DNA from: Synechococcus sp.
GTDB lineage: Bacteria; Cyanobacteriota; Cyanobacteriia; Thermostichales; PCC-7336
DNA: 63,387 nt
NCBI GenBank assembly: GCA_051439425.1
Contig: JBFRWD010000033.1
Location: 1-63,387 of the forward strand
Direction of reading: 5' to 3'
Made by a program: the position numbers and the translations under genes. Below the pieces are notes generated by a model. It was not told the DNA's origin. It searched no databases and saw only the letters and a list, made by a program, of their open reading frames with translations. Every line of letters begins with the position of its first letter. The first letter of the stretch is position 1. Below, in pieces: positions 57,105 to 59,317 of this stretch.

Positions 57105-57196
57105 GATTAACGATGGCAATCACCGGTGCGAGCAAAAACTAGAAACGAAGCAGTAGAATTATTCACCGAGCATCCGTGTGCATTGCGTTGTTAGAC
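57105..57196 (-). mobile_element. Integron attC site of cassette 2
   Basis: Minus strand: R'' GTCTAAC, spacer AACGC, L'' AATGCACA (extra G), ..., L' GGTGATT, spacer GCCATC, R' GTTAATC; inner stem CGGATGC/GCACCG. Confidence 0.88.
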
Positions 57197-57280
57197 ATGC
57201 TGACTCAGAAATATTGCTTGCAACCTGGCACAAAATTCTGATCAGCCTCGAATTAGTCACCTTTTTTAAGATTTTTCAGA

Positions 57281-57829
57281 TTATTTAGCTCTATGCTTGA
57301 TCAACAATTCATCCAAGTTTCTTTTTAATTCTTCAGTTTTATCATAAATATGTTCTTCAAATTCCTTAGGCCATCTCACTTGTTCAAGACTTGCAACATG
57401 GTCAGGAATATATGGATCATTTTCGCGTGTACAATACATTCCCCATATTGTGGCAGACGTCATAAATTCTATGAACTCAGGTGGAAATTTTTCTCCATCC
57501 ATTAGATGTGTCTTAGTCTTTAAAATCACCGTAATACTATCATTCTGATGTTTGAACAAATTTATAATCTCTTGATTGACTTCTTTGACTTTTCCATCAA
57601 TCCAGATCGGATAAATTTCAGAACTTAACTTTAAAGATGCATAAATCGGCCCATAAAATTCCTCAAGTTGACGCTGTCTAAACTCAAGATCTGTCTCAGT
57701 TAGTAGTGTTTCTTTGTGCAAAATTTTTTGAAGCCCTGTTTCGATAATCTTTTCCGAAGAAAACTTGAAAAAGGTTCCAGCTCCAAAAGCGCTAGCAAGA
57801 AATACTCCTAGTATTTGAAGAATATCCAC
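57281..57829 (-). CDS. Cassette-borne hypothetical protein with N-terminal membrane anchor
   Basis: AT-rich single ORF between two attC sites; GTG start; RQLEEFYGP motif. Confidence 0.8.
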   Translation of the reverse strand: MDILQILGVFLASAFGAGTFFKFSSEKIIETGLQKILHKETLLTETDLEFRQRQLEEFYGPIYASLKLSSEIYPIWIDGKVKEVNQEIINLFKHQNDSITVILKTKTHLMDGEKFPPEFIEFMTSATIWGMYCTRENDPYIPDHVASLEQVRWPKEFEEHIYDKTEELKRNLDELLIKHRAK

Positions 57830-57902
57830 TTGATATAACTCTTACAAAACAACTTTACCAAAGACTGATAAACCAATAATAGATGCGAGTACAGGAGCCG
57901 AG

Positions 57903-57992
57903 GGCTAACGACCAGCGTAACCTGGCGGCGACATTACGCGTTGAACTCAGATTCCGCCGGATTCGCTGCTTCGGTTCACGCAATTGTTAGTC
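57903..57992 (-). mobile_element. Integron attC site of cassette 1
   Basis: Minus strand: R'' GACTAAC (contains the ORF stop TAA), spacer AATTG, L'' CGTGAACC (extra G), ..., L' GGTTACG, spacer CTGGTC, R' GTTAGCC. Confidence 0.9.
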
Positions 57993-59030
57993 CTCAGCAG
58001 AGTTGATGTCACCGACTAGTTGCTTCGCACTACCTTCGTGCCATCCGCTCTTGACAAGATGCTCAATCGTAAACGCCTTAGGGAATGCGCCGATCAGGAG
58101 CAGGTACAGCGCGAACGAGTCGTTTACATTCCATTCGGTCCTGTAAATCGCGCGGAGATACCGGTCCCAATTGAAATTCAACGCCGTTTCCAAGTCACGC
58201 ACAGTTGGAATTTCGAGGCGTTCGCATTCCTCAACGACCTTACCAACAAAATCGCCGATTTCTTCGGAGTCCTCATCTTGAGCGACAAACACGTAACCAA
58301 TTGACCTCATTAGAGCGACTGCGTCCGAGAATTGTGATGACGTTGAGATCAGTTTTCGAATCACAGGCGCGTCGAGAGCCGCCTCTTTCAGTTCATCTTC
58401 TGATGTAGCCTGAGTAGCTGTGGTAATCTTCTCCTTCCTATCTCGAATAACGATAAATTCTTCATCAGCAAGCTCGAACAAACCTGCGAGGCGAAATAGT
58501 TGTCGCCGCAAGCGAAAAGGTACGTCACCTTCTCTTTTGTACTGCAGCGCATGTGAGACGGCAGCCCATGAATGTTGAAGGACCGTTCGCACTTGAATCT
58601 CGGCACGGCAGTCTACGAACGTCTTCCATTCTGTGAGTTCATTTCGCGCTGCGTTCAATTTGACAATGTAGTGCATAGAAAGGTAGCCAAATTGATCCGG
58701 TGAATAATGGTCTGCTTGGTGTTCAGTCACCTCTTCGACCGTGTCAAACTCTTGCTTGATTAACTCGCCAACGCGGGGGATATCGTCAAGGTAATACAGA
58801 ACGAGACGGATGCCAGCGAGGTCAGGCATGTCGTCTAGCGGCTGGTCAAAGCTCTTGCCCGGGCGACTGAGTTTCTCGGCGAAACTACTCACGGATTTTG
58901 CCCGTGATTCTGTGAAGTGGACCTTGACGTTAATGGCTCGCAACATTTCGACAAGAAGAGATTCTATTCGACTTGCGAAGATCTCGTATGTCGGGAAGAG
59001 CTCTCGATACTTTGTGACCGCGTCGTGCAT
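57987..59030 (-). CDS. Cassette-borne RelA/SpoT-domain (small alarmone synthetase-like) protein with C-terminal extension
   Basis: SRAKS..S, DLAGIR, FGYLSMHY, EIQVRT.LQH.WA..SH.L.YK. Confidence 0.9.
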   Translation of the reverse strand: MHDAVTKYRELFPTYEIFASRIESLLVEMLRAINVKVHFTESRAKSVSSFAEKLSRPGKSFDQPLDDMPDLAGIRLVLYYLDDIPRVGELIKQEFDTVEEVTEHQADHYSPDQFGYLSMHYIVKLNAARNELTEWKTFVDCRAEIQVRTVLQHSWAAVSHALQYKREGDVPFRLRRQLFRLAGLFELADEEFIVIRDRKEKITTATQATSEDELKEAALDAPVIRKLISTSSQFSDAVALMRSIGYVFVAQDEDSEEIGDFVGKVVEECERLEIPTVRDLETALNFNWDRYLRAIYRTEWNVNDSFALYLLLIGAFPKAFTIEHLVKSGWHEGSAKQLVGDINSAED

Positions 59031-59048
59031 CTGGAAGACTGAATTGTA

Positions 59049-59222
59049 GGACTAACTATTGATTAGTAGGAAATTGTCCACCTAAGATCCCTGGCTGGAA
59101 TATTATGAGGAATTATTCCGCCTAAATCCCTTCTACGGGTGTTTAATAGGACGATAAATCCGCCTAATCCAAGAATAGTAGGAAATTCTCCGCGTGGATT
59201 TAGTCTGTATGTTTGTCCACGT
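59049..59222 (-). mobile_element. attI-like primary recombination site with upstream repeats
   Basis: Core GTTAGTCC (59056-59049) is the exact complement of the cassette-1 end GGACTAAC. No attC hairpin upstream; instead 4-5 imperfect (T)AGGA..TT.TCC(G/A)CCTAA repeats. Confidence 0.7.
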
Positions 59223-59317
59223 GAGAAGTGAAAAGCAAAACTAGTTGAGTGAAGCCCCGAAAAGGCCATGTAACAATGCCCAAAACCTAAATGGGATAAA
59301 GAGCTCAGGCTTTAACA

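Follow-up and report, generated by a model that had tools for sequence, protein, structure and literature searches.

The stretch of DNA analysed here (the window, 63,387 nt) is the entire contig C33 (GenBank JBFRWD010000033.1) of a metagenome-assembled Synechococcus sp. genome that came from a marine sediment metagenome (G000; 4.8 Mb, 182 contigs, 96% complete), and our subject is a two-cassette integron array at 57105-59297, located among genes of an extracellular contractile injection system (eCIS). Read from the contig end on the minus strand, the gene order is sheath, three tube genes, a gene for a 139-aa protein, the integron region, a gene for a 546-aa protein, a gene for a 448-aa eCIS_core protein and a TraB-family gene. 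For comparison we used the same-genus genomes G001 and G002, of which G002 is complete, and profile and model searches covered 41 genomes (G000 and 40 relatives). In the integron region the following features were identified:

57105-57196, minus strand: attC2 (GTCTAAC ... GTTAATC, with the same layout as attC1)
57111-57908, minus strand: cassette 2, composed of an open reading frame (ORF; 57281-57829, 182 aa) and attC2, with a strict pattern match
57903-57992, minus strand: attC1 (GACTAAC, 5 nt, L″ box with one extra G, L′, 6 nt, GTTAGCC)
57909-59055, minus strand: cassette 1, composed of an ORF (57987-59030, 347 aa) and attC1
59052-59191 (about), minus strand: attI, with an inverted-repeat core ending ...ATAG^TTAG at 59056/59055 and repeated boxes upstream
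59268-59297 (approximate), plus strand: degenerate vestige of the 5′ end of intI, aligned to the start of the intI fragment on contig C172
59298-59336, no strand assigned: breakpoint interval between eCIS and integron; synteny with G001 and G002 ends at 59336, and the similarity of the attI copies on the intI side fades at ~59297

Both attC sites are built alike: the last letters of R″ are TAAC, then come 5 nt of spacer, an L″ box that carries one additional base, a variable middle part, L′, 6 nt of spacer and an R′ that opens with GTTA. One co-oriented ORF precedes each of them, and the stop codon of the first ORF sits within R″. At its 5′ boundary cassette 1 reads GTTAGTCC (59056-59049), which exactly complements GGACTAAC, the R″ of the same cassette; a repeat search lengthened the complementary stretch to 14 nt (93%). 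Classical attC sites such as attC-aadA7 and VCR have R″/R′ and L″/L′ boxes, an unpaired central spacer, an extrahelical L″ base and a variable length, and our sites resemble them in box layout, the unpaired 5/6-nt spacer, the extrahelical L″ base and length (58-99 nt here). On the other hand, classical sites have the extrahelical G on the recombined bottom strand, whereas the sites of G000 have the extra L-box base as G on the cassette-coding strand and as C on the opposite one. This G on the cassette-coding strand, hence C on the opposite strand, the one with bottom-strand geometry, was seen in 7 of the 7 sites of alignment A1 (column 22, which corresponds to 57976 in attC1 and to the 57177 region in attC2).

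We searched G000 for such sites by pattern and by covariance model. A loose attC pattern was too permissive, with 537 candidates genome-wide. The strict one (R″...TAAC, GTTA...R′ and a perfect 7-bp L box with one bulge, on both strands) gave 23 sites in the 4.8-Mb genome, among them attC1 and attC2 at exactly their coordinates. Of these 23, 7 are found in cassette orientation downstream of an attI-like copy (two on C33, three on C172, and one each on C98 and C77). The covariance model, R1, was built from four attC-like sites of other G000 contigs (alignment A3), with both window sites left out; a short site on C77 was also left out, since a five-sequence alignment including it (A2) misaligned the boxes. 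With filters off, R1 gave 6 matches in the window at E≤10. The best, at 57901-57994(-), scored 48.3 bits (E 3.3e-11) and the second-best, at 57103-57198(-), 23.6 bits (E 3.7e-4), while the third reached only 11.9 bits (E 0.79). Genome-wide, all 10 R1 matches at E≤1 fell on the five contigs with an attI-like copy.

The pairing of the boxes was examined in 26 model-aligned sites (A7), where 91.1% of the cells pair compared to 74.3 ± 1.5 in shuffled alignments, a value reached by 0 of 500 shuffles, with the pairing counts inflated by the fit of A7 to R1. Changes on both sides were found in 8 of the 9 L-box pairs (slid controls, 21-37%). At each of the four inner R-box pairs, 25 or 26 of the 26 sequences pair in the standard way. 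The outermost R-box pair is broken in 11 of 24, which is expected of a pair that derives from the next cassette. Independently of the model, MAFFT and RNAalifold on 7 sites recovered the same two helices, with compensatory changes in 5 of the 13 pairs. In single-stranded DNA folding, the plus strand of attC1 gave z = -2.5. A scan of the whole window with Rfam at gathering thresholds returned no match, which is uninformative, as no attC family was returned for any site. Thus attC1 and attC2 are confirmed as genuine integron attC sites, and the initial annotation, which had placed two sites with this layout and one ORF each at these positions and had proposed a G^TT insertion footprint at the head of cassette 1, was right on all of these points.

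A further stretch was considered and rejected as a confident third attC:

56861-56933, minus strand: weak attC-like stretch, unconvincing (R1 11.2 bits, E 1.3)

Its R″ reads GTCTAGT and its L boxes are unpaired by eye; it is possibly a decayed site. As no R1 match was detected behind the 546-aa or the 448-aa gene in the window scan, these two genes are not cassettes. Just past the array, a 16-nt inverted repeat (94% complementary) joins 56838-56853 with 58977-58992 at the start of the cassette-1 ORF, with a chance expectation of ~0.05 in a 2.8-kb stretch.

Window 59052-59168 was found to be repeated elsewhere in G000, giving six attI copies in total. The other five, given by the anchors homologous to 59052, are the following:

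C172:10995, attI-like copy
C175:16717, attI-like copy
C153:24165, attI-like copy
C77:29261, attI-like copy
C98:42747, attI-like copy

The copies on C33, C172, C153 and C77 were clear by BLAST, while those on C175 (E 1.7e-4) and C98 (a 15-nt exact core and the alignment only) were weaker. They are 71-75% identical over 106-118 nt, all six end in ...CTAATCAATAGTTAG (ATAGTTAG) and, in the alignment, they diverge directly after GTTAG; this point of divergence is the boundary of cassette 1. The window attI also aligned with sequence immediately upstream of intact intI genes in G023, G039, G035 and G024. The features in common are a core of the TTAGnCGGAAA/TTTCCGnCTAA type followed by ATAG^TTAG, and TTAGGCGGA-type boxes upstream. 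Inside the window attI, direct repeats were detected at 59061-59079/59173-59191 and at 59112-59125/59154-59167. The attI1 site of class 1 integrons has an inverted-repeat core at the crossover G^TT and upstream direct repeats resembling integrase boxes, and the window attI resembles it with its core at G^TT and its upstream direct repeats, a likeness of architecture only. Judged by its sequence, 59052-59191 is a bona fide attI at the head of the array.

Beyond attI, the homologue of the intI start codon lies at 59268-59270 on the plus strand, with a stop codon directly after it (codon 2) and ~10 degenerate codons up to ~59297. At the C172 copy, an N-terminal intI fragment with stop codons was found on the diverging strand, which matches positions 1-91 of TIGR02249, the integron integrase profile, with 87.4 bits compared to the curated cut-off of 265 bits. 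This was the best TIGR02249 match of G000, and no intact intI was detected in the genome. Four matches to PF00589, the tyrosine recombinase family, were found in G000, all of them on other contigs and none on C33, in line with the initial annotation, which had reported no intact tyrosine recombinase in the window; one of the four also matched TIGR02249, with only 34-35 bits. The C172 attI heads an array of at least six attC matches (4477-9982). The copies on C175, C153, C77 and C98 share up to ~100 bp of upstream sequence and then diverge; on C175 no attC match was found near attI, and on C153 the sole match is 16 kb away from it.

The side of the array that faces the contig end is occupied by the eCIS structural operon:

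61586-63295, minus strand: eCIS sheath (Phage_sheath_1C E 1.8e-19, Phage_sheath_1 E 2.1e-10)
60944-61441, 60360-60842 and 59734-60231, minus strand: three eCIS tube genes (Phage_T4_gp19, all three)
59318-59737, minus strand: small conserved eCIS protein of 139 aa, last gene of the operon (the 'chaperone' of the initial annotation)

The sheath is ~84% identical to that of G001 at the protein level. The third tube protein also matched TIGR02241, and the CIS5 and CIS1 families stayed below their cut-offs. The 139-aa protein matched no Pfam, NCBIfam, PHROG or PADLOC family, and its own family has at least 587 relatives among genome contigs. Used as a query, it gave one match in G000 compared to 2 or 3 in each of the 8 relatives with a match, and in those inspected (G001, G002, G018 and G027) the gene and a paralogue stand in tandem. 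The label 'chaperone' is tentative because the paralogue matches Phage_TAC_7 only weakly (E 0.0015 in G002, below cut-off).

A tblastx comparison showed collinearity of the window with G001 and G002 that begins at the sheath and breaks off at 59336, which is 18 nt short of the stop codon in the 139-aa gene. The junction with the integron is the synteny breakpoint at which the second small eCIS gene is missing, since collinearity stops there and the paralogue is absent from G000. In G002, the operon ends after the paralogue and is followed by an unrelated SAM_HAT gene, and genes for an AAA ATPase, Pvc16_N and eCIS_core lie in a divergent operon; these AAA ATPase, Pvc16_N and eCIS_core-type modules were found in G000 on other contigs. 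No synteny with the window was detected in the G002 neighbourhood 20 kb further out. A sheath-like fragment sits at a contig end of G000 (C88:8-316); over 105 residues it shares 84% identity with the sheath protein of G002, a hint that the bin contains either another sheath gene or a strain variant. In eCIS of the Afp/PVC type, payload genes are located downstream of the structural genes. G000 is similar in having sheath and tube genes followed by genes for eCIS_core or shared-leader proteins, and differs in that its structural operon is short and the other modules are elsewhere.

It is likely that 57105-59297 is a decayed sedentary chromosomal integron with a vestige of ~10 codons of intI, a complete-looking attI and two cassettes. 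We read it as an integron that decayed in place, and not as a bare attC cluster, because an attI of its own and a remnant of where intI began are still present. An integron integrase would have inserted the two cassettes at attI (G^TT), and intI would have been lost later, through a deletion with one end in the 3′ tail of the 139-aa gene and the other near codon 10 of a convergently oriented intI. Such a deletion would have removed the second small eCIS paralogue together with nearly all of intI and fused the array of attI and cassettes behind the sheath-tube operon. Lacking IntI, the array would now be frozen unless IntI arrives from elsewhere. As little of the native promoter region is left, it is probably read-through out of the eCIS operon, or else a promoter within attI, that drives the cassettes. 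In a consensus scan of 54800-60400, 2 promoter-like sites compared to 5.7 ± 2.7 in shuffled sequences were found, in a group whose promoters may not fit the consensus, and 4 terminator-like sites compared to 6.1 ± 2.4; this weak scan detected no promoter-like site on the minus strand of 59030-59320 and no terminator-like site in the 287-bp gap between the 139-aa gene and cassette 1.

Several observations weigh against this interpretation. The intI vestige has only ~30 nt and can be aligned in two alternative ways, and with a completeness of 96% in 182 contigs an intact intI could be unassembled or unbinned in G000. As for the sites, R1 was built from G000's own attC sites, which also bears on the counts from A7; attC2 is weak in the genome-wide R1 search (E 0.028) and folds as single-stranded DNA no better than its shuffles (z = +0.6 and +0.1). 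G001 also carries attC cassettes that adjoin the same end of the operon, on the opposite strand (locus L013, 9700-9788(-), R1 37.9 bits), and arrays at the same operon end in two same-genus genomes exceed the expectation from random placement, so that a local preference or function may lie behind the shared position. Moreover, the deletion scenario needs an integron orientation opposite to that in G001; therefore an extra inversion or an independent event is needed to relate G000 and G001.

In the portion of Cury et al. 2016 (PMC4889954) cited here, a CALIN (attC sites clustered in the absence of integron integrases) has two or more attC sites and lacks an integron integrase in the vicinity, its origins include the loss of intI and genome rearrangement, and Cyanobacteria are said to encode integrons; intI pseudogenes, searched for by the C-terminal domain, were reported near 15 of 279 CALINs. 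With two attC sites and no nearby integron integrase, our element agrees with this definition, and the initial annotation had called it an integrase-less cassette array. This holds as far as the definition goes; the element is not a bare cluster, as attI and the vestige of the intI start are retained. Compared to the CALINs in that portion of the study, it retains attI and a tiny 5′ vestige of intI with the C-terminal domain gone, and its genome has six attI copies. Integrase-less arrays can thus retain attI, which standard CALIN calling does not report. The locus is a well-documented case of cyanobacterial integron decay, in which the integrase has been lost while attI and its cassettes have remained, now joined to the end of an operon unrelated to them, and the work provides a usable attC model and an attI consensus for this cyanobacterial clade.

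Among the other explanations, the one that survives best is a live integron outpost, at whose attI cassettes would be excised and inserted by an IntI with its gene elsewhere, be it missing from the assembly or the bin or carried on an incoming element. It would account for an attI that is well preserved compared to sites beside intact intI, for two attC sites that are structurally intact, and for cassettes that are missing in a close relative (X2, below); intact intI is common in the clade (20 of the 41 genomes above the cut-off), and the gaps of an assembly with 96% completeness and 182 contigs leave room for it. Nevertheless, the only integron-integrase remnants found in G000 were the C172 fragment with its stop codons and the window vestige, where the remaining attI copies were inspected for remnants within ~100 bp of shared upstream sequence, and all four PF00589 matches stay below the cut-off for integron integrases. 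The supply of IntI in trans, which the initial annotation had suggested, did not find support in the search for intI elsewhere in G000, as no intact gene was found (87.4 bits compared to 265). We consider a live outpost unlikely.

The initial annotation had also proposed that the array may be an exchangeable slot of the eCIS, read through from its operon, in which cargo or defence genes are swapped by IntI acting in trans. In its fullest form, this reading has attI wired behind the sheath-tube operon, with the inserted cassettes (payload, immunity or defence genes) co-expressed with the machine. The arrangement itself was described correctly: the array is co-oriented with the sheath-tube genes and the 139-aa gene and begins 262 bp beyond where the latter, the last gene of the operon, has its stop codon (~260 bp in that annotation), and eCIS-type genes flank it on both sides. 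These are the sheath, tube and 139-aa genes on one side and, on the other, the genes for the 546-aa protein and the 448-aa eCIS_core protein, which share a leader. A slot would also fit the G001 cassettes at the same operon end, and the close relative in run X2, in which 53615-56691 and 60226-63387 are present at ~94-97% and 56940-58839 has zero depth, with the join of the flanks not visible. Because of this zero depth, the cassette content at this position or close to it differs between strains. If such a slot existed, the opposite-strand array of G001 and the cassette-free X2 relative would be snapshots of a dynamic, recurrently used site, and a functional eCIS link would add a novel route by which the accessories of injection systems diversify; the comparisons made here speak against it.

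In the best 80 eCIS loci found with the 139-aa family (±10 kb, 1.35 Mb in total), only 1 of 80 had an R1 match at E≤1, and it coincides with the G001 contig; 41 of the 80 loci are cyanobacterial by record title and R1 is clade-specific. The R1 density in relatives, ~270 matches at E≤0.01 in ~165 Mb, gives an expectation of ~2 in the scanned loci, so that with 1 found there is no enrichment of attC at eCIS loci. The G001 array lies on the opposite strand and is convergent with the operon, and therefore read-through is excluded in G001. In relatives, the second paralogue normally closes the operon. The junction in G000 resembles a deletion scar that removed an eCIS gene, cassette 1 has no leader and the leader search misses both cassette ORFs (see below), and no intact IntI was found in the genome. 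In titles and abstract openings of the papers listed as mentioning contractile injection systems together with integrons, supplements excluded, no such coupling appeared. An exchangeable eCIS slot is thus quite improbable, and the proposal was not upheld. The shared array position in G000 and G001 suggests an inherited location, and most likely the array lies beside the eCIS because this genus inherited such a genome layout, not because the two are coupled by design. In G001, the array region (L013 on G001:C6, 8400-12217(-)) holds at least five small ORFs between attC-like sites (R1 37.9 and 13.8 bits, others by eye), and this row of ORFs, in convergent orientation, runs towards the 3′ end of the eCIS operon; it extends beyond the contig end.

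We also considered that the join of eCIS and integron is an assembly chimera of the metagenome bin. In favour of this are the origin of the DNA from a marine sediment metagenome, the presence of attI as a repeat with six copies, and strain variants in the same study and elsewhere. Against this, we judged that attI copies with 71-75% identity differ too much for an assembler to collapse them, the repeat does not include the breakpoint, and a 3988-bp Logan contig of X1, the probable source run of the assembly, covers 55510-59497 with 0 differences and crosses all junctions. X1 contigs wholly within the window have depths of 12.5-13.7 over cassettes and flanks; Logan contigs of X1 come from a second assembler on the same reads and are no independent data. 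Runs X3 and X4 gave short fragments only. A chimera is very improbable. Finally, that the two attC sites are chance hairpins, for which only the folding energy of attC2 speaks, is hardly credible in view of the strict pattern, the R1 matches, the covariation, the diverging arrays beside intact intI in relatives, the exact footprint at the cassette boundary and the attI directly upstream.

Matches to TIGR02249 above the cut-off were found in 20 of the 41 genomes and R1 matches at E≤0.01 in 28. At four loci with full-length intI, 14 of the 15 R1 matches are on the strand that points away from intI, as is canonical for integrons. Many TIGR02249 matches in relatives are N-terminal-only stubs (positions 1 to ~50-160, with contig-edge effects uncontrolled), in G002, G005, G006, G018, G024, G027, G029, G031, G033, G034, G039 and others. 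Full-length intI genes number two or three in several genomes (G039, G023, G034, G009 and G038). In this cyanobacterial clade, it seems common to have more than one integron platform and to have intI stubs close to attI.

The protein encoded by cassette 1 has a RelA_SpoT domain (PF04607, E 4.5e-19, 69.2 bits with a cut-off of 27) at residues 36-200. It matched small alarmone synthetases in PDB with E 5.5e-18 to 2.4e-13, the 'RelA/SpoT family protein' 7ztb with E 1.5e-4, the PADLOC candidate PDC-S33 with E 2.8e-21 and phrog_9640 with E 1.3e-65. The PADLOC and PHROG profiles cover the protein up to residues 236-253, and no PDB match by sequence was found for its C-terminal ~150 residues. No second ORF was detected within the cassette. 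Perhaps this protein, a candidate only, is a small-alarmone-synthetase-like nucleotide pyrophosphokinase with a toxin or anti-phage role. It resembles small alarmone synthetases and toxSAS/CapRel-type proteins in the synthetase domain and the 7ztb match, and differs in the C-terminal ~150 residues, which have no sequence match in PDB.

Chromosomal integron cassettes often encode defence systems, according to the part of a preprint available to us (bioRxiv 10.1101/2024.07.02.601686), and cassette 1 as a defence or toxin candidate fits that part of the work. Like the anti-phage cassettes of sedentary chromosomal integrons described there, cassette 1 is single-gene and streamlined and has the PDC-S33 match; unlike those integrons, as far as that part goes, ours has two cassettes, lacks an integrase and sits in a cyanobacterial host, and its defence role is that of a candidate only. 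A single-gene cassette with an alarmone-synthetase-like product is thus a candidate defence or toxin module. Cassette 2 has a G+C content of 34-36% compared to ~50% around it, and its 182-aa protein has no family, the nearest Atlas clusters being unnamed hypothetical proteins (score 0.96). Each of the two cassette genes was found in 0 of the 40 relatives. Both cassettes are probably ordinary integron cargo and not eCIS payloads, with cassette 2 as a low-G+C orphan gene.

On the other side of the array, two genes of the eCIS type were identified:

55067-56707, minus strand: 546-aa protein, no family (Pfam, NCBIfam, PHROG, PADLOC), with an N-terminal leader as in eCIS_core-type proteins
53578-54924, minus strand: 448-aa eCIS_core (DUF4157) protein (PF13699 E 1e-7)

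The 448-aa protein is 42% identical to an eCIS_core protein beside the G002 eCIS. Between residues 8-83 of the 546-aa protein and the N-terminus of the 448-aa protein there is 28% identity (E 4e-7), and the leader of the former also occurs in proteins of G001 and G002 and on two other contigs of G000. This leader of ~80-100 residues could be an eCIS-associated targeting or packaging region. A direct comparison of cassette 1 with the 546-aa protein gave nothing shared (E 0.96), and neither cassette ORF was recovered by the search with the 546-aa protein that found the leader elsewhere in G000. In a metagenome scan with the same protein, 3 loci were found, the best of which (93% identity) has the C-terminal half only, at a contig start. 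The leader was seen on otherwise different proteins at G000:C135:4975-5490, G000:C24:11368-11658 and G001:C16:69896, and in G002:C1 at 1039791, 2462171 and 4151103.

A PsbQ-type gene is also present on C33, which marks the genome as cyanobacterial in its gene content. The TraB-family gene, which follows the 448-aa gene, is bordered by direct repeats (52246-52335 and 53462-53551) with 56 nt at 77% and 21 nt at 81% and a spacing of 1216 nt. Contigs of X1 and X2 showed raised depth, many loose ends and alternative joins at both places, and because of this the repeats flanking the TraB-family gene are suggested to be a dispersed short repeat.

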